Part shown: piece after piece, positions 2,232 to 55,661 of the stretch
Numbering within the stretch: the stretch's first letter is position 1
Layout of the letters: every line of letters starts with the position of its first letter
Assembly (NCBI RefSeq): GCF_024223415.1
Contig: NZ_CP100500.1
Source: Escherichia coli
Lineage (GTDB): Bacteria > Pseudomonadota > Gammaproteobacteria > Enterobacterales > Enterobacteriaceae
Reading direction: 5' to 3' (one strand)
DNA length: 64,000 nucleotides
The notes under the pieces: generated by a model
Told to the model about the DNA's origin: nothing
Databases searched by the model: none
Seen by the model: only the letters and a program-made list of their open reading frames with translations
Translations under genes and position numbers: made by a program

Positions 2232-2561
2232 CTATGCCACGACCTGTTCAAAATCTGCCGTTATGGTTACCCACAACGCCCCCACGCTTGCCGACCATTT
2301 ACGACAAACCACCCTGATCGGCTTCCAGTCATAAGGTGGCGTCCACTGAAATGCGCGGACGCCACCGTGCCGTTCCAGAAAGGCTTTTAAAGATGGGTGT
2401 TCACATTTACGAACACGTATCGTCACGCTGTAAATCGACAACTGGTTATTCAGTCCCGCCGCACGACGCTGTTCATAACCATCGCCCAGCTTCACTGTCA
2501 CCACTTTCGGCTCTGATACCACATTCATATCCGGGCGCACTTTCCAGTGAAACGTCTCCAT
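2232..2561 (-). CDS. M: Minor tail protein M
   Basis: 109 aa ORF at the lambda M position between L and H. Confidence 0.8.
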   Translation of the reverse strand: METFHWKVRPDMNVVSEPKVVTVKLGDGYEQRRAAGLNNQLSIYSVTIRVRKCEHPSLKAFLERHGGVRAFQWTPPYDWKPIRVVCRKWSASVGALWVTITADFEQVVA

Positions 2562-5500
2562 TACCGATATGCTCCACTTAACCGACCACCATCACGGGCC
2601 TGCTGTTGCATAAAGTCCGCTGCCGCTTTTTTCCCAAGGTCATAAACCACCTTCAGGGCAGCCGGACCTATCTGCCCGTTCGTGCCATCGTTATTGATCT
2701 CGATGTTGTACTGCGGGGCAAACATCGCCATACCTGAACCACCAATATCCGCCACAACCCCCAGCTTACCGTCAGCACCACGACGCAGTGGCAGAATGGC
2801 TTCAGGTCCAGCTTCCCCCATCACACCCGCGCCTTTTGCAAAAGCAAAAAACGTCGGACGGTTAACCACCGTGCCACTGTAACGACTCAAATCAGCAGAC
2901 TGATAAATCCCCCCATTGGCATTCAGGGAAAGGCTGCTGAGATCAAATCCCAGTACACTGCCAATCCCTTTTATCGATTTCATCATGGTTGCCTGCGCCA
3001 GGATTTTCGCCATATCTGACAGCACCGAAGAGGTGAAGGATTTGAAGTTGAGTTTGCCGGTAGTGACAAAAGTTGCCAGGCCATTTCCCATGTTGCTGAA
3101 GGCTGATGAGAACACCTGTTCTGCTGTTCCTGCCGTATTGTCTGCATCCACGGTAAAATCCTGAAATGCACGCAGGACTCCGTTTTTCCAGTTACCCTGC
3201 ACAACTTCAAGCTGTTGCCAGTAACGGCGATTCTCATTCAGTTGTCGGTTCAGGCTCTCCGTCAGCGCCTGCTCGGCCTTTCTGTAGTCATCCGTGTTAT
3301 ATGTCCCTTTCTGCTCACTATCCCGCCTCAACTGCTCCAGCTGTTGCTGGTATTTCTGGCGAAGACTCAGTTGTACCTGATATCGCTGCCGCTGCTGATC
3401 ACCCATACCCACCGTGGCGATATCCAGGTCATGTTGCTGACGCTGAGCGCGCTCTTCTTCAGCCAGTTGACTGGTCAGCTGAATTGTTTTTTTCTTCAGA
3501 TCGTTGAGTGCCGTTTGTTTCTGAAGCTCCTGCTGTTTTACATCCAGCAGCGTCAGTGCCTGAATCAGTTCATCTTTACGGGCCAGCACACTCTTTTCAT
3601 CTGCCGTCAGTTTTTTCCCGTCCAGGTCGCTGATGCGCTGCTGCAGAGCCAGAAGCTGTTTATGCGCTTCTGTCATCCTGTCAGTGGCAATGCCTGCTGA
3701 CTGTCTGGCAGCAGCAATCTGCCCTTCCACCTGTGCCTGTTGCTGGCTGTACTGCAGCAATAACCGGGTGGCCTCATCATTACGGGTTTCGCGTGTTTTT
3801 TTCTTACCGGATGCCAGGGCTTTCTCGTAACGTTCATTTTCACGTTGTATCGCCGCATCCCTGACAGCCTGATCGGCGTACTGCATGGCATTAATACGCG
3901 CAATTTCACGCTGATGTCGTGCTGCTTCCGTTTCATTCATCCGGTTCAGTGCAGCATTTTCAGCATTACGGCGTTTCTGTTGCTCCTGATAATTCCGCTC
4001 TGCCTGCTCTTTTGCATCCTGCAAATCCTTCTGGCGTTTTTTCTCCTGAAGCTCGTTAAGACGCTGCTGATCGTATTCAACCTGAGAAGATGATGCCGTC
4101 CAGGGGAGTCTTTTCGCCCGCGATACTTTCTCCTGCAAAGTGGCAATCTGCGCATCCAGCGAATCTTCACGACCAATATTCATGGCCGCATCCCAGAACT
4201 GCTTCCACCAGTCAGACAAGGTTTGCAGCGTACTACCCAGCGCATTGAGGTTATTATCAATATCCGCAGTACGCCGACCGGTTTCCTCTGCCAGTGCAGA
4301 CATGGCTATCCGTGCCGCATCACTGGAGCGCCCCTGCTCTCCAAGGACGCGTATCTGCTCAAGCTGAGTGGCAGTAAGAAAATGCAGCTCATTGTCCAGA
4401 GCCTTCGCGGCATTTACAGGATCATCCTTCAGCCGCTTAAACTGATTTATGGTATCGCTGATCGACTGGCCAACCGATCGCTCCATCTGTGCGGCAGCTC
4501 TCGCCACCATACCGATATCGTTTCCACGAAATGCACCACTCCCCACCACCTGAGCCAGCGCACCGGCTGCAGCATGTTGCGTGATACCATTCCCGGAAAT
4601 AGCACGACTGAGCGTCCACAGCTGCCCGGCAGTGACTCCGGCATAATGCCCCGTCAGCGACAGCTGGCGGTTAAATTCTTCCCCCTCCTTCTGACCGTCA
4701 TACCAGGCTTTACCCAGACCATAGACGGCCGCGGTAATACCGCCAATAACCCCGCCCAGCATCATGCCTTTCGGTGACATCAGTGTGTCTATCCATCCGG
4801 CACGGTTAGCCAGCGTTATCCCGGATCCCCTCAGCGCCCCTAAATTGCCGCGGGCCAGTTCACCTATCAGAACGCCTATCTCCTGGCGGGCCGCTGCACT
4901 TTTCAGACCCAGCGAATGCGTGGCTTTTCCTGCCCGCTCCATTTTGCGGATATACACTTCTGCAGCACTGCTTACCCCCAGCTGGGCAGCCCTGGCACGA
5001 AGCAACTCAGAAGAAGAAAGATTCTGGCGGGTTGCCTGCTCTTTAAGCTGACGGATAAACGCCACTTTCTGTCGGGTAGCCTCTGCCTCAGCCTGCGTAA
5101 GAACACGGGTTTTCGCCGTAACCTCAGAAATCAGCGCCAGATAATCCTGCTGACCAATCCCGCCACTGTTTCTGGCCTGTCGGATCTGCTGCTGAATACG
5201 CTGTAACTCCTGCAACCCCGCACTGGCCTGTTTCACACTGTCAATCTGACGATAAAACGCGGCAGCCGCTTTATCCTGAGCCTCCGCCAGAGCCATGGCC
5301 TGCGCCTGTTCCTCGCGCATTTTCTGGCTCAGCGCCTCCATGCGCTGGCGGGTTTTCTCCACCTCGCGGGCCATGCGTTCATGAGCCTGTGCGTTCTTCT
5401 CCACCGTCTGCGCATGGACGGATGCGGCTGTTGCAGCCGAAGAAGCCGCCTGCGTTGTCTGCCGGGCGGCCTGAGTCTGACGCTCCATAAAACGCTGCAT

Positions 5501-5656
5501 ACGGGCAGAAGACCGTTCTGCATCGCTGGCTGCACCATTCAGAAGGTTTTTGATACGGGGAATTTCATTTTTAAATTCTGCCGCATCAATCCCCAAATCA
5601 ATGACCAGGTTGGCTATCTGGTCCATAACGCACACCTCCGGAAATACCTTCCCCAA
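2561..5656 (-). CDS. H: Tail tape measure protein H
   Basis: 1031 aa, long coiled-coil/Q- and A-rich central region, Gly-rich hydrophobic C-terminal segment; position between G/T and M. Confidence 0.85.
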   Translation of the reverse strand: MGKVFPEVCVMDQIANLVIDLGIDAAEFKNEIPRIKNLLNGAASDAERSSARMQRFMERQTQAARQTTQAASSAATAASVHAQTVEKNAQAHERMAREVEKTRQRMEALSQKMREEQAQAMALAEAQDKAAAAFYRQIDSVKQASAGLQELQRIQQQIRQARNSGGIGQQDYLALISEVTAKTRVLTQAEAEATRQKVAFIRQLKEQATRQNLSSSELLRARAAQLGVSSAAEVYIRKMERAGKATHSLGLKSAAARQEIGVLIGELARGNLGALRGSGITLANRAGWIDTLMSPKGMMLGGVIGGITAAVYGLGKAWYDGQKEGEEFNRQLSLTGHYAGVTAGQLWTLSRAISGNGITQHAAAGALAQVVGSGAFRGNDIGMVARAAAQMERSVGQSISDTINQFKRLKDDPVNAAKALDNELHFLTATQLEQIRVLGEQGRSSDAARIAMSALAEETGRRTADIDNNLNALGSTLQTLSDWWKQFWDAAMNIGREDSLDAQIATLQEKVSRAKRLPWTASSSQVEYDQQRLNELQEKKRQKDLQDAKEQAERNYQEQQKRRNAENAALNRMNETEAARHQREIARINAMQYADQAVRDAAIQRENERYEKALASGKKKTRETRNDEATRLLLQYSQQQAQVEGQIAAARQSAGIATDRMTEAHKQLLALQQRISDLDGKKLTADEKSVLARKDELIQALTLLDVKQQELQKQTALNDLKKKTIQLTSQLAEEERAQRQQHDLDIATVGMGDQQRQRYQVQLSLRQKYQQQLEQLRRDSEQKGTYNTDDYRKAEQALTESLNRQLNENRRYWQQLEVVQGNWKNGVLRAFQDFTVDADNTAGTAEQVFSSAFSNMGNGLATFVTTGKLNFKSFTSSVLSDMAKILAQATMMKSIKGIGSVLGFDLSSLSLNANGGIYQSADLSRYSGTVVNRPTFFAFAKGAGVMGEAGPEAILPLRRGADGKLGVVADIGGSGMAMFAPQYNIEINNDGTNGQIGPAALKVVYDLGKKAAADFMQQQARDGGRLSGAYR

Positions 5657-8802: not shown

Positions 8803-10761
8803 TTACGCCGTACATTTCACCAGACCGCGGTGATCAACTGGCGCGACACCGGCGTCAATACGCACTTTCGTTGTCACGCCATCCACACTGAAGCCCTCCA
8901 TCTGATCAATATATGGCGTATCCACACCGTTGAGATAAGCCACTTCAATCGTATCGGAGCCTTTTGACGCAGCCAGGTAGAAGGTGGTCTGGCTGTTATC
9001 ATCAAGACGAGGCTCTGCAATAACGGTCGCAAAATCTTTCACCGGGTTAATAATACCGGCGTTAATGTCAGCCCCCTTGACACTTGAGGAGCGAATGACC
9101 TGGTTAGCAACAGACTCCATCGCCGTCGGTACCAGTACGAACGCAGGACGAATATTCAGATGACGCTCCCCCTCTTTCTGAACACGCATCAACTGGCGGG
9201 CTTTATCCAGCGATGCCACGTCCATTGCAGCGTCCTCCAGTACGTTTGCATGTTTCGCTTTATCGAACAGACTTACATTATCTGTGGAGATTTTCGGGTT
9301 AGACGTCAGAATGGCATAAACCAGATCGGCAATAGTGGATTTCGCCGCACGGCCCAGCTTCATCGGGACATCGGTCAGCATATTCAGATCATCATTGATA
9401 ATGGCCTGACGGGTGATACTGAACAGCTCGCCATAGGTCGCCAGTGCAATAGTGGCCTGTTTATCTCCGGTGGTGACGTATTTATATTCCGCCCCTTCAC
9501 GCACCTGACGCAGAGCACTGAAGCCCCCTATACCCACGCGATGGGCAATTTTAAAATCAGACAACTGACCTTTCCGCGTCCACTGTTCATAGGTTTCAGG
9601 GGCATCTTCCCAGCCCTGCAGAATGGCTTTGTTCGCAACATCCAGCAGAATATTACCGAAGTCAGACGTACTGTGTGTGAACGCCGCACCGACCATCTGC
9701 ATCGGGTTATAACCGGAAACCCCAATACCCCGTTCAGTCAGTGACATACGGGCATATTCACGCAGGGTCATCCCGTTGTAGACATTATCACGTTCGGTTT
9801 TTTCAAATCCGGCACGCGCCATCAGCGCCTGGCGGATCCCGTCCCCCACAAAATTACCGTTACCGGCATAAATATGAGCCGGGGTATTTTTATTGGATGG
9901 CGTGGACTCGCGCCCCATCTCGTTCAACAGCTTTTCGCGGGCCTGCTCCAGCGAACATTCAGGATCGGCAAGACACTGAGCCTGCAGCGTCTGATAACGC
10001 CCGCCAAACATGGCAAACAGATCATTAATACCGTTTACACGCGCTTTTTGCTCTGCCAGTACCTGCGCACGGATACTGTTTTCATCCACCACGGGTGCTG
10101 CTGCCTGCACTGGCGTCCGGGAGGCTGCAGGTTCATTATCCTGTACGCGTGGAGCACTGTTGCGTGGCGGAGTAATCATGTTTCGAATGGATTCCGGCAT
10201 CTTTTTAAATTCCTCTGTACGTTTTGACTGAATACATGCCATTGCCTTAACGGCTGGCGTCACCTGATCAGCAAATCCATGTGCCAGACATTCGGCACCG
10301 GACATCCAGGTCTCATCCGCCAGCATGGCAGCAATTTCATCGGTGGTTTTCCCGGTTTTCTGTGCATAAGCGGGTAACAGAACCGCCTCAACCTTATCGA
10401 GCAGGTCGGCATAGGTGCGCATGTCCTCCGCATCACCGCCCGTAAAGCCAAATGGTTTATGAATCATCATGAAGGTGTTTTCCGGCATAATGACCGGTTT
10501 TCCCACCATCGCAATGACCGACGCCATTGACGCCGCCACACCGTCGACATAAACGGTAATGGACGCACCATGTGTTTTCAGCGCATTAAAAATGGCGATG
10601 CCTTCAAAGACATCGCCACCCGGTGAATTGATATGGAGATTAATGTGGGTGATATCGCCCAGTGCATTCAGATCACTGATAAACTGCTTCGCTGTAACAC
10701 CCCAGAAACCAATCTCGTCATAAATATAAATATCCGCGTCACTCTGGTGACCAGCCTGCAT
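8803..10761 (-). CDS. Head maturation protease (ClpP/S14-like) fused to major capsid protein
   Basis: N-terminal region IYIYDEIGFWGVTAKQF...HINSPGGDVFEGIAIFNALK...MASVIAMVGKPV is ClpP-like; about 450 aa C-terminal domain; lies between portal and head-tail genes; start set at MQAGHQSD (ORF extends to 11022). Confidence 0.7.
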   Translation of the reverse strand: MQAGHQSDADIYIYDEIGFWGVTAKQFISDLNALGDITHINLHINSPGGDVFEGIAIFNALKTHGASITVYVDGVAASMASVIAMVGKPVIMPENTFMMIHKPFGFTGGDAEDMRTYADLLDKVEAVLLPAYAQKTGKTTDEIAAMLADETWMSGAECLAHGFADQVTPAVKAMACIQSKRTEEFKKMPESIRNMITPPRNSAPRVQDNEPAASRTPVQAAAPVVDENSIRAQVLAEQKARVNGINDLFAMFGGRYQTLQAQCLADPECSLEQAREKLLNEMGRESTPSNKNTPAHIYAGNGNFVGDGIRQALMARAGFEKTERDNVYNGMTLREYARMSLTERGIGVSGYNPMQMVGAAFTHSTSDFGNILLDVANKAILQGWEDAPETYEQWTRKGQLSDFKIAHRVGIGGFSALRQVREGAEYKYVTTGDKQATIALATYGELFSITRQAIINDDLNMLTDVPMKLGRAAKSTIADLVYAILTSNPKISTDNVSLFDKAKHANVLEDAAMDVASLDKARQLMRVQKEGERHLNIRPAFVLVPTAMESVANQVIRSSSVKGADINAGIINPVKDFATVIAEPRLDDNSQTTFYLAASKGSDTIEVAYLNGVDTPYIDQMEGFSVDGVTTKVRIDAGVAPVDHRGLVKCTA

Positions 10762-10774
10762 CCTGAACCAGGAA

Positions 10775-12355
10775 TTATTCTTCGGACTGGTCGTCGGTGT
10801 GCTGCGGCTCCTGTCGTTTCGTTGCGGCACTGCTGCCTCCTTTATCACTGGCCGGATCGGTATCAAATACCAGATCCAGCTTGCGGTTTTCATCAATTTC
10901 GGCCTTGCGCCGACGTTTGACATCATCCGGATTACGACCACCTGCACGTACCCAGTCTGATTCTGTCGCCGCTCCACCACGAATCTGGATTTTCCAGGCC
11001 TCAGCCTCCTTAACAGGGTCAATCCACGGCATCACCGGTCCGGAATACACCGCGGTATACAGTGAAGAACGGTCAAGATCGCGGGGTAGCCTGATAACAC
11101 CGGATGCCACAGCCTGTTTCAGCCAGGCACGGTACATCGGGCGGGTGACGGCACCAATAAACCAGTCCTGCAGGATCAGGTAGCCATCAGTGGATTCAAC
11201 CAGCTCCTGACGCTGGGCGCTGTAAGTGCCGTTATAGTTGCGCGCTGTACTGGAAAAACTCAGACGACTGCCAGCCGCCACTGCACGCAACTGACCATTA
11301 CGAAAAGTTTCAAGATTAGGATTGGGGCGATCCGACTTCACCATTCCGATTTCTTCGCCGGGTTTCAGATCGTCGTAAATAATGCCTGGCTGAATGGTAA
11401 GCTCGCGTTCCTTATCCTTGCTGCCATTACCATCCGGTTCATAGCTCTGCCCGTCGCCTTTGCGGATGTACATCCCCAGAGCAGCGGCGATCCTTGCTGC
11501 AGTCAGCTCATAATCTTCATAATCTTTCAGGGCACTGAGGCGGATCAGCACACCGGACAACAAAGACGTCCCGCGCATCTGGTGCAGACGGCGAACAAAT
11601 TTAAGATGCAGCATTCGCTCTGCATCCACTTCTTTGGTTTCCATCTGCCGTCCGGATACGGGACGGCTTTTATACACCAGATATTTTTCGGGACGCCCCC
11701 AGTCATCAACAAACACGCCCTGATTCAGCCTGTTGCTCTCATCACTGGTCATGGGAATAAAGTCCGGCTCGAGCGCCTCCAGCCAGAAATGAACACCGGC
11801 AGAAGGCGTCAGGCTGTTTATGCGCCCGGAAACCATCTGGGCAAACACCTCACCATCGCGCAGCCAGGTACGCAGCATCAGACGTTCCAGTATCGGACGG
11901 GTAAACTGCCCGGTGACTTCCGGGCTGACAGACCATTCACTCCATCGGGTGCGAATCTCCGCTGCCAGATCACGGGCAATGGCCCCATTGCGTAATACCG
12001 GATGTGGCTCGACAATAATCCCGTTTTTCCCCACCACCCGTTCTTCCCGCTTGTCAAATACACCAATAACCAGATCGTGGTTGTTATCAAGGTAACGGGC
12101 CTGCTCACGTAACGACACGGCCCCGTACTGGCTTAGCTGGTCGGCAGTTCGGTTCTCCCGTCGGGCTTTGTGTGTCCGCGTCGTTTTTACGGCTTCATAA
12201 GCCTGGATCACCGCACGGGAACGCAGCCTTGCCGCTTTCCATCCAGGTGAAAAAACGCCAATCACATCATCAAGAATTGCCATCAGAACCTCGCCAGCCG
12301 GTACCCGGGATGCCCCCGTCGTCGTGTAATCAGAGCCGCAAGGCGGCGCTCCCAC
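10775..12355 (-). CDS. Portal protein (lambda gpB-like family); true start possibly 12283
   Basis: 526 aa ORF immediately downstream of terminase/W; portal-like size and position. Confidence 0.75.
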   Translation of the reverse strand: MGAPPCGSDYTTTGASRVPAGEVLMAILDDVIGVFSPGWKAARLRSRAVIQAYEAVKTTRTHKARRENRTADQLSQYGAVSLREQARYLDNNHDLVIGVFDKREERVVGKNGIIVEPHPVLRNGAIARDLAAEIRTRWSEWSVSPEVTGQFTRPILERLMLRTWLRDGEVFAQMVSGRINSLTPSAGVHFWLEALEPDFIPMTSDESNRLNQGVFVDDWGRPEKYLVYKSRPVSGRQMETKEVDAERMLHLKFVRRLHQMRGTSLLSGVLIRLSALKDYEDYELTAARIAAALGMYIRKGDGQSYEPDGNGSKDKERELTIQPGIIYDDLKPGEEIGMVKSDRPNPNLETFRNGQLRAVAAGSRLSFSSTARNYNGTYSAQRQELVESTDGYLILQDWFIGAVTRPMYRAWLKQAVASGVIRLPRDLDRSSLYTAVYSGPVMPWIDPVKEAEAWKIQIRGGAATESDWVRAGGRNPDDVKRRRKAEIDENRKLDLVFDTDPASDKGGSSAATKRQEPQHTDDQSEE

Positions 12356-12501
12356 TCCTGCCGTCCCTGCCGGATCTCAGATAAGTTTTCCATGGTCATC
12401 TGCTGACCATTAAAGGTGACGGATTTTCCGTCCAGCACCGCCATTTCAGCTTCCATATAACGCTGAATCATGGCTTCGATATCATTCTGGTTCATAACCA
12501 T
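12283..12501 (-). CDS. Head-tail joining protein W-like
   Basis: 72 aa, ends ...RRRGHPGYRLARF; lambda gpW-like size, position after terminase large subunit. Confidence 0.6.
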   Translation of the reverse strand: MVMNQNDIEAMIQRYMEAEMAVLDGKSVTFNGQQMTMENLSEIRQGRQEWERRLAALITRRRGHPGYRLARF

Positions 12502-14594
12502 CCTCCGGAAGTCAGCCAGGGGTTAACATCGTCAGTTACTGTTTTCTTCCGTTTTTGTTTTTTAACAGGCGTGGATACCGGTTCCGGTGAGGATGACGGT
12601 TCGGTACTGTCCTGGACACACTCCAGCCAGGTTTCCCGGCTCGCCCACTCCGGTGCATCCGGCCAGCGGATCTTTTCGTATCCATGCAGAATGACCAGAG
12701 CCTCGGCATACACCATCAGGTCAAAAGCTTCGTTGGCACCGCGACCCGGCTTACTCCATTTCCCGTCACTGCTCCGCTCTTCATACGTCAGTTCGTCGTA
12801 AAACCAGCTCCCCAGCCAGTCAGGGAAATGCACATAGCCGGGACCTGGCGAGTCACGCCATAACGCGTTATTCACCCGGTCTTTCAGTGCATCCGTCTGA
12901 AGAAGCCAGAGCGGCACATCACCTGCGGCCTGCGCCCGTCGGCCCGTTCGTCCGGTGTTATCAGGGAATGTACGGGTGATCAGTTTTGCGCGCCGGATGC
13001 TGTCGCCCTTAAACAGGTAAATACGTTTACCAAGGCCATCACGACGGCAACGACGCCAGAATTTATAGGCATTATCAGTGACCCCGTCTTCACCGCCGGA
13101 GTCCACCGCCATTGCCATCAGTCGCATTTGTTGAGAAGGATCGGAGGCCAGCGGCCAGCTTTTATGAAAAACATCCGTCAGCAGGACATCCCAGTCTTCC
13201 GGATAGCTGGCCGGATCAATTCGCTGGCTCTCCCCGTCGCTGTCACCGCGCAATGACTGCGTGATGTTGTAACGATCAATAATCCAGCGTTCGCCACGGC
13301 TGCCATAGCCCGTTACCTGAACCACAAAACGGCGATGACGTCCCGCCTGCACATCCACTGTCGCCACAAGGAAATTAACGCCATCCGGCACACTGCGGGA
13401 AGGAACTGGCTCTGCCCGCTGCTCAAGCAGTTCACTTTTTCGTTGCTCCATGCTGGCGCGGGGAAGATAAGGTAATCCCCAGTCGGTATTGATAACCGTC
13501 TTGAGTGTTTCTTCACTTCCGGTTGTCTCGTATTCCTGTTCTGCAGTAAGCAGTTTGTAAACGAGTTGCGAGAGTGTCTGGTAAGCAGCTGCCGGACCCT
13601 CCATCCAGAATGACGCAATACGTGAGCGTCGGGGATCACCATAACGACTGCCATCCGCATTGATGGATTCACCATCCCGCAACCAGACCCCACGTCCGTT
13701 CAGCTCACGTTTGTGTTCAGGCATAATCCGTCCTGAACAGGAAGGACACTGAATATAAGCCGCCTCACTTGCCAGCACGGGATCGGCAATATCACGGAAA
13801 CCAGCAACCACATCGCCGCAGGGCTGAAAATACTCACCACAGTGTGGACAGGGCCAGTACCAGCGACGGCGATCACCACGGTTATAGAGCGACAGGATCC
13901 CCGTGGTTGGTGGAGCCTCATGCGGTGAAGTCCGTCGCCATTTCACATCCTTCACATCCCTGCCGGGGGAACTCTCCACCAACGTCATACCGCTGGACAT
14001 AAATGTGGTGGTACGTTTTGAGGCAAGAGAGAAGGCATCCCCCTCGCCATCAATATCTTCCGGAAAACGGTCATAATCCGTCAGCGCGACGCATTTATAA
14101 TCTGATGAGGACATGATATTGACTGACGGCCAGCCGATTTTCAGGTAGTTGCCAGCAAGGAATGTTCTGTCATAAACGTTGTTGTCATTTTTGTTCGGAC
14201 TCAGGCGACTGACCACTTCCGGGCTGACGCGAAACGTTCTGGCGAGTCGTTTTTTGGAGTGTTCGCGGGCTTTTTCCTCCGTCATCTGAATGATCAGCAT
14301 ATCAGCAGGATCGCAAATCACGTTGTAAATCACCCAGCCGTCAATCAGGCCGATAGTCTTGCCGGTTCGTGCCGGGCCAACAAATATCACTGCGTCGTAT
14401 TCACGCGAGGCCAGGCAGTTCATCGGCTCAATAACATACGGTGCCACCAGCGGATCCCACGGGACTGAGTTCCCGGCCCCCATGGGCACCCGCATATACT
14501 GAGCAACGGCATCAGCAACCCGCATTCGTCTCGGTGCGCGAAGGATATAACCTGAATCGGTTCGTGCTGCCTTTGCGGTTTCCTGATTCAGCAT
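12492..14594 (-). CDS. Terminase large subunit (lambda gpA family)
   Basis: 700 aa; N-terminal ATPase region with FVGPARTGKT Walker A; lambda A-like. Confidence 0.9.
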   Translation of the reverse strand: MLNQETAKAARTDSGYILRAPRRMRVADAVAQYMRVPMGAGNSVPWDPLVAPYVIEPMNCLASREYDAVIFVGPARTGKTIGLIDGWVIYNVICDPADMLIIQMTEEKAREHSKKRLARTFRVSPEVVSRLSPNKNDNNVYDRTFLAGNYLKIGWPSVNIMSSSDYKCVALTDYDRFPEDIDGEGDAFSLASKRTTTFMSSGMTLVESSPGRDVKDVKWRRTSPHEAPPTTGILSLYNRGDRRRWYWPCPHCGEYFQPCGDVVAGFRDIADPVLASEAAYIQCPSCSGRIMPEHKRELNGRGVWLRDGESINADGSRYGDPRRSRIASFWMEGPAAAYQTLSQLVYKLLTAEQEYETTGSEETLKTVINTDWGLPYLPRASMEQRKSELLEQRAEPVPSRSVPDGVNFLVATVDVQAGRHRRFVVQVTGYGSRGERWIIDRYNITQSLRGDSDGESQRIDPASYPEDWDVLLTDVFHKSWPLASDPSQQMRLMAMAVDSGGEDGVTDNAYKFWRRCRRDGLGKRIYLFKGDSIRRAKLITRTFPDNTGRTGRRAQAAGDVPLWLLQTDALKDRVNNALWRDSPGPGYVHFPDWLGSWFYDELTYEERSSDGKWSKPGRGANEAFDLMVYAEALVILHGYEKIRWPDAPEWASRETWLECVQDSTEPSSSPEPVSTPVKKQKRKKTVTDDVNPWLTSGGWL

Positions 14595-30936: not shown

Positions 30937-31473
30937 ATGTCATTTATTAAAACTTTTTCCGGGAAGCATTTTTATTATGACAGGATAAATAAAGACAACA
31001 TCGATATTAACGATATCGCGGTTTCCCTTTCAAATATCTGTCGCTTTGCAGGACATCTTTCACACTTCTACAGCGTCGCCCAACATGCGGTGCTTTGCAG
31101 CCAGCTGGTACCGCAGGAATTTGCTTTTGAAGCGTTAATGCATGATGCAACAGAAGCTTATTGTCAGGACATCCCCGCGCCACTGAAACGCCTTCTTCCT
31201 GACTATAAACGGATGGAAGAAAAAATAGACGCCGTAATCCGTGAGAAATACGGGTTACCCCCGGTTATGAGCACGCCTGTGAAATATGCCGATCTCATCA
31301 TGCTGGCAACCGAACGCCGCGATCTCGGGCTTGATGATGGCTCTTTCTGGCCTGTACTGGAAGGCATCCCGGCAACAGAGATGTTCAACGTGATTCCACT
31401 GGCACCGGGCCATGCCTACGGGATGTTTATGGAACGTTTTAACGAGTTATCGGAGTTACGCAAATGCGCATGA
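30937..31473 (+). CDS. YfdR-like HD-domain phosphohydrolase
   Basis: From MSFIKTFSGKHFYY...; HD-type His/Asp residues (…FAGHLSHFYSVAQHAV…MHDATEAY…). Confidence 0.65.
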   Translation: MSFIKTFSGKHFYYDRINKDNIDINDIAVSLSNICRFAGHLSHFYSVAQHAVLCSQLVPQEFAFEALMHDATEAYCQDIPAPLKRLLPDYKRMEEKIDAVIREKYGLPPVMSTPVKYADLIMLATERRDLGLDDGSFWPVLEGIPATEMFNVIPLAPGHAYGMFMERFNELSELRKCA

Positions 31474-31742
31474 ATGTTTTCGAAATGGAAGGGTTTCTTC
31501 GTGGGAGATGTGTACCGCGAGATCTGAAAGTGAATGAAACAGATGCTGAATACCTAGTGCGCAAATTCGATGCGCTTGAAGCTAAATGTGCAGCACAGGA
31601 AAACAAAGCAATACCAGTGTCAACTGAACTGCCACCAGCAAATGAAAGTGTTTTGTTATTCGATGCTAACGGAGAAGGCTGGCTAATTGGCTGGTGTTCT
31701 CTCTGGTACACCTGGGGACAAAAAGAAACCGGAGAATGGTAG
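31464..31742 (+). CDS. Hypothetical early protein
   Basis: 92 aa ORF overlapping the upstream stop (coupled). Confidence 0.35.
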   Translation: MRMNVFEMEGFLRGRCVPRDLKVNETDAEYLVRKFDALEAKCAAQENKAIPVSTELPPANESVLLFDANGEGWLIGWCSLWYTWGQKETGEW

Positions 31743-31825
31743 TGGACATTTCAGGTCGGGGACCTTGAAAACGTCAATATCACTCACTGGGCAGTAATGC
31801 CAAAAGCACCGGAGGCTGGAGCATA

Positions 31826-32131
31826 ATGACCACATTTACCAATAAAGGACTGATTAAAGAAATCAAAGAACGAATCAGCAGCCTAGATGTTCGAGACGAT
31901 ATTGAGCGCCGTGCTTATGAAATCGCACTCGTATCTCTGGAAGTAGAGCCAGATGAACGCGAAGCCTATGAATTATTCATGGAAAAGCGTTTCGGTGACT
32001 TAGTAGATCGTCGGAGAGCAAAAAACGGCGATAACGAATACATGGCATGGGATATGACTCTCGGTTGGATCGTCTGGCAGCAACGAGCTGGTATCCATTT
32101 TTCAACAATGACACAGCAAGAGGTGAAATAA
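31826..32131 (+). CDS. Hypothetical early protein
   Basis: 101 aa ORF upstream of xis. Confidence 0.35.
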   Translation: MTTFTNKGLIKEIKERISSLDVRDDIERRAYEIALVSLEVEPDEREAYELFMEKRFGDLVDRRRAKNGDNEYMAWDMTLGWIVWQQRAGIHFSTMTQQEVK

Positions 32132-32502
32132 TGGAGCCATACAGCCTCACACTCGATGAGGCCTGTCAGTTTCTTAAGATATCCAGACCAACCGCCACCA
32201 ACTGGATACGAACAGGCCGCCTACAGGCAACACGTAAAGATCCAACCAAGCCAAAATCTCCTTACCTCACAACACGGCAAGCCTGCATTGCGGCGCTTCA
32301 GTCTCCGCTGCATACTGTCCAGGTGAGCGCGGGTGATGGCATAACAGAGGAAAGAAAATGTCACTCTTCCGCAGAAATGAAATATGGTATGCCTCGTATT
32401 CGCTCCCGGGCGGGAAACGAATTAAGGAATCTCTTGGCACAAAGGACAAGCGGCAAGCTCAGGAGTTGCACGACAAGCGAAAAGCAGAACTCTGGCGAGT
32501 AG
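32131..32502 (+). CDS. xis: Excisionase (AlpA/Xis-type HTH), unusually extended C-terminus
   Basis: From [35 protein letters not shown]; frame stays open to 32502, overlapping int start by about 145 nt. Confidence 0.5.
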
Positions 32503-33521
32503 AAAAGCTAGGGGATTTACCTGATGTCACTTTTGAAGAGGCCTGCCTAAGATGGCTTGAGGAAAAAGCTGATAAAAAATCTCTCGATTCAGATAAAAGC
32601 CGGATTGAGTTCTAGCTTGAACATTTTGAGGGTATAAGGCTTAAAGATATCTCGGAGGCAAAGATTTACTCTGCTGTAAGCAGAATGCATAACAGAAAGA
32701 CGAAAGAAATATGGAAACAGAAAGTTCAGGCCGCCATCAGGAAAGGTAAAGAACCGCCTGTTTATGAACCAAAGCCAGTATCAACTCAGACAAAGGCAAA
32801 GCATCTTGCCATGATAAAGGCCATTCTCCGTGCTGCAGAACGCGACTGGAAGTGGCTGGAAAAAGCGCCTGTCATCAAGATACCAGCGGTCAGAAACAAG
32901 CGAGTCAGATGGCTGGAAAAGGAGGAAGCAAAACGCCTTATTGATGAGTGCCCCGAACCACTGAAATCTGTCGTCAAGTTTGCGCTGGCAACTGGTCTGA
33001 GAAAGTCGAACATCATAAATCTGGAATGGCAACAAATCGACATGCAGCGACGAGTTGCCTGGGTGAATCCAGAAGAGAGCAAATCAAACCGCGCCATTGG
33101 TGTGGCGCTGAACGATACCGCCTGTAAAGTGTTGCGTGATCAAATAGGCAAGCATCACAAATGGGTGTTTGTACATACCAAGGCGGCTAAGCGAGCAGAT
33201 GGAACATCAACGCCTGCGGTCAGGAAGATGCGCATCGACAGCAAGACATCATGGCTATCAGCTTGTCGTCGTGCAGGAATTGAAGATTTCCGTTTCCATG
33301 ACCTCAGACACACCTGGGCAAGCTGGCTGATCCAGTCAGGCGTCCCATTATCAGTGCTTCAGGAAATGGGCGGATGGGAGTCCATAGAAATGGTTCGTAG
33401 GTATGCTCACCTTGCGCCTAATCATTTGACAGAGCATGCAAGGAAAATAGACGACATTTTTGGTGATAATGTCCCAAATATGTCCCACTCTGGAATTATG
33501 GAGGATATAAAGAAGGCGTAA
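32358..33521 (+). pseudogene. intD: Tyrosine integrase (IntD-type) interrupted by in-frame TAG at codon 86
   Basis: [19 protein letters not shown]...SRIEF then TAG at 32613-32615, then the same frame continues [11 protein letters not shown]... to the catalytic domain (…HDLRHTWAS…RYAHL…). Confidence 0.8.
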
Positions 33522-33536
33522 CTGATTGAATTGTAA

Positions 33537-33613
33537 TGGCGCGCCCTGCAGGATTCGAACCTGCGGCCCACGACTTAGAAGGTCGTTGCTCTATCCAACT
33601 GAGCTAAGGGCGC
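33537..33613 (-). tRNA. argU: tRNA-Arg (anticodon UCU)
   Basis: 77-nt cloverleaf on minus strand, anticodon loop CTTCTAAGT, T-arm GGTTCGAATCC, 3' CCA; immediately downstream of int. Confidence 0.9.
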
Positions 33614-55369: not shown

Positions 55370-55661
55370 TGTGCCCCCATCGCTCTGATAGTCTGGTGTC
55401 GTCGGGTCCTTCTGGAATTATGGCCCGTTACGGGGCGTCGACCTCGCGGTTTTTCGCTATTTATGAGCTTTTTTAGAGGGAGGTTGTTGTTTAATTGTTT
55501 GTCATATCCATTTGATAACTAAGTAAAAATAAAGAGCAATACAACAACCTGATAGTGTTTTTTTGATGCTAAAAATAAAAAAATACTAATTGAATCAAAT
55601 AGTTTTAAAAAAATACGTGGTTGTTGTATTGCGTATTTGATGGCGTAACAGAAAGTGATTT

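Follow-up and report, generated by a model that had tools for sequence, protein, structure and literature searches.

The closest described counterpart of the gene studied here is xis of phage P22. In the RefSeq P22 record this gene measures 351 nt (116 aa) and int starts 124 nt before the xis stop; the 116-aa sequence is that of UniProt entry VXIS_BPP22, and the P22 length used throughout rests on this record and on the UniProt name. P22 integrates at thrW. In lambda the overlap between xis and int is about 20 nt, against 124-145 nt in phages of the P22 type, and the C-terminal tail of lambda Xis contacts Int. The pI/pL arrangement of lambda has been described (PMC2951348), and Gifsy-1 Xis is 94 aa long (PMC2603039). 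According to the account given in PMC7498355, P22 Xis has been purified and binds and bends att DNA (Mattis et al., 2008).

We analyzed a stretch of 64,000 nt from Escherichia coli (contig NZ_CP100500.1 of assembly GCF_024223415.1; hereafter the window), in which an ORF with an N-terminal helix-turn-helix (HTH) extends far into the integrase gene of a prophage. This ORF (32131-32502, plus strand) is very probably an intact P22-type excisionase gene, coding for a recombination directionality factor, whose length and overlap with int are conserved family architecture and not damage. A P22-type xis with a normal int overlap is already known biology, the textbook P22-type int-xis layout.

The prophage at argU

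The argU gene, encoding tRNA-Arg(UCU), was located with ARAGORN at 33537-33613 on the minus strand. It is the integration site of the prophage, and its 3' end faces int. The gene order is that of E. coli K-12 (fimZ, argU, intD, xisD), and to the right of argU lie fimZ and the sfm fimbrial genes, again as in K-12. Positions 1-33580 of the window, up to argU, correspond to a lambdoid prophage whose far att site, together with the P arm at that end, is located beyond the window start; a second att copy was sought in the window, and only one chance 13-mer match was obtained, at 55411. Large ORFs on the minus strand in the first ~15 kb (for example 2561-5656, coding for 1031 aa; 8803-11022; 12492-14594) resemble structural and packaging genes, and plus-strand early genes extend from ~27.7 kb to int. 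The last but one gene of the leftward early operon is xis, directly after a yfdT-like gene.

The xis reading frame

The xis gene runs on the plus strand from an ATG at 32131 to a TAG at 32500-32502. The sequence, the ORF list and a direct check all agree that it comprises 372 nt, that is 123 sense codons and the stop, with no earlier stop in frame. The initial annotation had described a frame open from 32131 until 32502 and an Xis-type HTH beginning at 32131, and both descriptions are borne out, the second by a Pfam HTH_17 match at residues 6-36. Its product length of 124 aa has to be corrected to 123 aa, because the 372 nt include the stop.

A ribosome-binding site, AAGAGGTG, can be read from the sequence at 32118-32125 on the plus strand, 5 nt ahead of the ATG; its GAGG Shine-Dalgarno motif occupies 32120-32123, 7 nt before 32131. 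Upstream, the yfdT-like ORF (31826-32131) ends in a TAA at 32129-32131 that shares one base with the xis ATG. This 1-nt overlap of stop and start suggests that translation of xis is coupled to that of the yfdT-like gene.

Family assignment of Xis

Xis matches the PHROG family 2907, named 'excisionase', from residue 1 to residue 116 (profile positions 2-117 of 117; E = 1.1e-45). The only other PHROG matched is 10045, and that match is weak. A Pfam scan of the protein at E <= 0.01 returned HTH_17 only (E = 1.2e-8; 35.5 bits against a cut-off of 27) and no lambda excisionase family, and TIGR01764, 'excise', scored 27.7 bits, just below its curated cut-off of 28.8.

With P22 Xis, the protein shares 75.4% identity over query residues 1-122 (tblastn). 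A tblastn search of 50,697 phage records matched 162 of them, 161 with at least 80% query coverage. Among these records P22 and its relatives are about 75% identical to the window Xis, and 13 reach at least 99% identity, including the ECOR13 phages PhiR49_1 and PhiR29_1. An alignment of homologues contains 22 invariant columns, three of which are the tail residues L98, L102, and T106. The exact 123-aa protein is present on at least 1000 public contigs, where it is named 'excisionase' or 'DNA-binding protein', and at least 80% of the xis gene is found in 2129 of the 5426 complete E. coli genomes.

Length of Xis across the family

The initial annotation had taken about 55-80 aa as typical of Xis proteins. 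This range is valid for the lambda type only, since P22 Xis has 116 aa and Gifsy-1 Xis 94 aa. We compared 12 phage loci, whose hosts are Salmonella, Escherichia, Shigella, Cronobacter, Edwardsiella, Proteus, and the aphid symbiont Hamiltonella. All 12 phages have an xis of 110-123 aa with int starting inside it, always in the +2 frame. Eight of them have an overlap of exactly 124 nt, and the other four, PhiR49_1, POCJ13, APSE-7, and Proteus phage V3, one of 145 nt. An xis with a P22-like layout is annotated in SfV, HK446, ENT47670, ES18, and APSE-7.

A search of 5.8 billion proteins gave a similar picture, with two modes of Xis length, one at 115/116 aa and one at 122/123 aa. Homologues of 122/123 aa, with 58-93% identity, come from Salmonella, Citrobacter, Cronobacter, Atlantibacter, Serratia, Pantoea, and Rahnella. 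Since Xis proteins as long as the one in the window are found in many genera and in viable phages, the extended length is a normal family feature. The alternative of a genuinely extended Xis, also raised in the initial annotation, was therefore right insofar as the extension is genuine, but it is the norm of the family and nothing unusual.

Int codon 41 and the two length classes

The length class is set within a short segment at 32478-32502 on the plus strand, where Int codon 41 (32478-32480) is CGA, coding for Arg, and xis codon 117 (32479-32481) is GAA. When Int residue 41 is Leu (CTG or CTA, followed by A), the xis frame meets TGA or TAA, which gives an Xis of 110-116 aa and an overlap of 124 nt. 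When it is Arg (CGA or AGA, followed by A), the xis frame reads GAA instead; Xis then has 122/123 aa and the overlap measures 145 nt. In this Arg41 class, xis runs on for seven codons (EKQNSGE in the window) to a TAG formed from Int codons 48 and 49. All 13 loci compared, the window and the 12 phages, follow this rule. The window Xis is thus seven residues longer than P22 Xis because Int codon 41 is Arg (CGA) and not Leu (CTG).

The xis/int overlap and selection on the Xis tail

The overlap, given as about 145 nt in the initial annotation, is exactly that: the int ATG lies at 32358, so that xis and int share 32358-32502 on the plus strand, corresponding to Xis residues 76-123 and Int residues 1-48. 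On the Xis side it covers the end of a linker, a predicted helix at about residues 89-107, and the tail; on the Int side, the arm-binding beta-sheet together with the first part of its helix. A GAGGA at 32347-32351 lies ahead of the int ATG, and int is read in the +2 frame relative to xis.

Since an alternative frame that is open for 48 codons is unremarkable in a single sequence, constraint was assessed across the 12 phages. The pairwise difference at int third positions amounts to 0.41 for codons 2-41; for codons 50-90 it is 0.61 and for the remainder of int 0.59, while amino-acid identity of Int is similar in the three parts (0.675, 0.674, and 0.654, respectively). The third-position divergence in the overlap is below that of all 293 other 40-codon windows of int. 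Translated in the xis frame, the overlap has an identity of 0.48, against a mean of 0.33 elsewhere, a value equalled or exceeded in 8 of the 293 windows. The alternative frame is open over the first 41 or 48 int codons in all 12 phages, and each of the 293 other windows is interrupted in this frame by a stop in one or more of the phages, the average being 11 of the 12. The open xis frame across the start of int is not a chance feature. Third positions of int are second positions of xis, and their low divergence in the overlap indicates that the Xis tail is under purifying selection of its own.

A promoter scan for a pI-like promoter inside xis found none on the plus strand between 31400 and 33700, and the scan total was no higher than in shuffled sequences. 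A weak sigma-70-like site is present on the minus strand at 31776-31803 (TTGGCA, a 16-nt spacer, and GATATT; 9 of 12 matches); it faces away from xis and lies ~330-355 nt upstream of it. The P22 and ES18 records carry an antisense promoter, PaI, ~150-215 nt upstream of their xis.

Damage in the prophage

The partner of xis is an intD-type tyrosine integrase gene with a frame of 387 codons (32358-33521, plus strand). The frame is interrupted by an amber at codon 86 and is present as two pieces in one frame, 32358-32615 (85 aa) and 32685-33521 (278 aa; PF00589, E = 7e-47), whereas relatives have an intact intD of 1164 nt at the equivalent place. The initial annotation had mentioned a nonsense codon in the integrase, and this we could confirm: the codon is a TAG at 32613-32615 on the plus strand that replaces W86, with A at position 32614 where the close relatives E. 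coli PF9285 and PhiR49_1 have G (TGG). A 61-nt segment of int occurs in 1635 complete E. coli genomes, all of which match at 98.4%, with one mismatch. We infer that this mismatch is base 32614 and that the amber is consequently absent from these genomes. The exact 85-aa Int fragment is found in 41 blocks of a contig collection, and the amber allele occurs in two early-region backgrounds, one of the yfdQRST type and one of the RecT/YqaJ/DUF4222 type, which suggests that it was spread by recombination or arose by recurrent mutation.

A second nonsense codon affects an EaE-like gene upstream of xis, at 31464-31826, where an amber at 31740-31742 (Q93) replaces the CAG of relatives. The encoded 'phage protein' has 120 aa in relatives and 92 aa here. 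The same truncation is found in contig UDHK01000010.1 (E. coli assembly GCA_900482235.1), to which the window is identical over 6258 nt; because of this identity the sequence of the window is taken as natural.

In xis itself there is no amino-acid change relative to E. coli PF9285 and PhiR49_1. Its DNA is identical across 32020-32613 to that of PF9285, which has an intact intD, and the Xis protein of PhiR49_1, whose int is also intact, is identical to that of the window. The decay of the recombination module proposed in the initial annotation thus applies to int, through the W86 amber, but not to xis. Decay in this prophage is real and confined to int and the EaE-like gene. Because int has an amber at codon 86, Xis has no working partner here, and the prophage should be unable to excise without Int provided in trans or suppression of the amber. 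Such an inability to excise would be attributable to the int amber and not to xis.

Alternative explanations for a long, intact xis

One of the two readings offered in the initial annotation treated the long frame as decay: the xis stop would have been lost by mutation, and a once-short Xis would now read through into int. Two nonsense mutations in the same prophage (32613-32615 in int, 31740-31742 in the EaE-like gene) and the shortness of lambda-type Xis proteins speak for it, yet the same xis DNA accompanies an intact intD in PF9285, the same protein is encoded by PhiR49_1, and the frame is open for 110-123 codons in all 12 phages, P22 Xis itself having 116 aa. Moreover, the 122/123-aa homologues come from seven other genera. 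Homologue lengths in many genera and in viable phages refute a loss of the stop, and we consider it extremely improbable. The intactness of xis next to a dead int could otherwise be explained if Xis had been retained or co-opted for another function, such as transcriptional regulation of prophage or host genes. Regulatory directionality factors exist, such as Apl of phage 186 (PMC7498355), and xis is intact in all six examined contigs with the int amber allele, across the two early-region backgrounds. Against this, the int amber is a single change that appears recent, given its inferred absence from the 1635 complete E. coli genomes with the segment, and the analysis turned up no regulatory target of Xis. 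As a recent amber has left little time for decay, an intact xis is expected even without selection, and we regard a second role as unlikely. Quite improbable, too, is the idea that the length classes, tied as they are to residue 41 in the arm-binding domain of Int, might reflect co-adaptation of Xis and Int, with the 7-residue extension and the changed Int residue together modifying Xis-Int contact or directionality control, and that, separately, a regulatory role might preserve xis in a prophage whose int is dead.

Two further possibilities concern the product of the gene. The true Xis might be longer, starting at an ATG at 32047 and reaching 151 aa, as the xis frame is already open from there, databases list entries of 144-151 aa, and the SfV record places the xis start further upstream. 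The 28 additional codons, however, fall within the yfdT-like gene in a different frame, family conservation starts at the Met of 32131, and the strong GAGG lies 7 nt before that codon. P22, HK446, and ES18 have other genes upstream and are nevertheless annotated from the equivalent Met. On conservation, the ribosome-binding site and these annotated starts, the 32047 start was rejected as very improbable. The int frame is also the -1 frame of xis, and a programmed -1 frameshift in the overlap would yield an Xis-Int fusion. The overlap does contain a single in-frame X XXY YYZ heptamer, G GGA AAC, at 32412, but this heptamer is found at that position in only 2 of the 13 loci (the window and PhiR49_1), plus a variant in HK639, and 7 of the 13 have no slippery heptamer anywhere across the overlap. 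Int has, in addition, its own ATG and GAGGA ribosome-binding site. A fusion was rejected on the lack of conservation of the heptamer, and its probability is close to nil.

Predicted structure and function of Xis

An AF2 model of Xis was built on 30 homologues. Residues 1-60 (32131-32310, plus strand) are predicted by HTH_17, AF2, and Foldseek to form a winged helix-turn-helix (wHTH) DNA-binding domain, modeled with block-mean pLDDT of 80-94 and the elements E5-7, H8-15, H19-28, E45-48, and H49-57. It is followed by a low-confidence linker (62-87), a helix at 89-107 (pLDDT ~58-69), and a low-confidence tail. The best match among solved structures (Foldseek) is the Xis of mycobacteriophage Pukovnik, 4j2n, with a target-normalized TM-score of 0.73-0.75 and an rmsd of 1.9-3.0 A over ~54 residues at ~25% sequence identity; the profile match has an E-value of 0.021. 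The next matches are BldC and MerR-type wHTH proteins. A sequence search of solved structures matched the HTH part weakly and returned nothing for the C-terminal half.

On the model of its homologue P22 Xis, the wHTH domain would recognize direct repeats in the att P arm and bend the DNA, and the bent P arm would lead Int to excise rather than integrate. Xis would thereby act as the recombination directionality factor of the argU lambdoid prophage. The C-terminal half may contact Int, mediate Xis-Xis cooperativity, or both, by analogy with the tail of lambda Xis. We modeled with AF2 a fusion in which Xis is joined to Int residues 1-66 through a GS linker of 30 residues, using a shallow paired alignment of 12 rows. 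In the fusion, Int residues 2-51 are represented by the elements E155-159, E162-168, E174-178, and H184-204. In this shallow-alignment model the Xis helix did not gain confidence, with block pLDDT of ~55 and 49, against 69 and 58 for Xis alone, and the model thus gave no support to docking of the helix on the arm-binding domain of Int.

Annotation of xis

On identical DNA, RefSeq/PGAP annotates a pseudogene of 63-66 nt, 'helix-turn-helix domain-containing protein, incomplete, missing C-terminus', equivalent to 32131-32196 of the window. Strains annotated in this way are PF9285, 789, and Nico21(DE3) (records NZ_CP038791.1, NZ_CP010315.1, and NZ_CP053600.1). Since the xis frame is whole, we read the label of partial pseudogene as an annotation artefact. 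The gene callers of the contig collection leave the xis stretch empty, and several phage records have no xis feature. Missed and partial calls of this kind look like a systematic artefact of the long int overlap. In K-12, the xisD pseudogene (2338-2580 of the K-12 locus used) is annotated to the P22-equivalent end; its frame is actually open seven codons further (EKQNSGE), as in the window, so the annotation matches the length in P22 and not the real stop.

In prophage surveys, a long xis overlapping int should not be counted as decay, and censuses of intact recombination modules that are based on annotation under-count xis in argU prophages. For the biology of the prophage the consequences are small, the xis gene and its overlap being those of a normal P22-type module.

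Comparison with known excision systems

Lambda Xis is likewise a winged-helix directionality factor encoded just upstream of int, overlapping it and co-transcribed with it from pL. At 72 aa it is much shorter than the window Xis, which has no detectable sequence similarity to it. The window protein would work like lambda Xis, but it lies outside the lambda-type sequence family of lambda and HK022. Pukovnik Xis, the nearest solved structure, has only 56-58 residues and lacks a counterpart of the 60-residue C-terminal half.

P22 Xis (VXIS_BPP22) has the same N-terminal HTH and the same place directly upstream of int, and both P22 and the window prophage are integrated into the 3' end of a tRNA gene. 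The window Xis differs from it by the seven additional residues EKQNSGE and the corresponding overlap of 145 nt instead of 124 nt; in addition, the window prophage sits at argU and has an inactivated int.

The cryptic prophage DLP12 of K-12 occupies the same site and has an int of the same family, and the Xis tails of the two prophages differ at a single residue. The state of the two genes is reversed between these prophages: in DLP12, intD is intact and the N-terminal HTH part is missing from xisD, a true remnant, whereas in the window xis is complete and int carries an amber.
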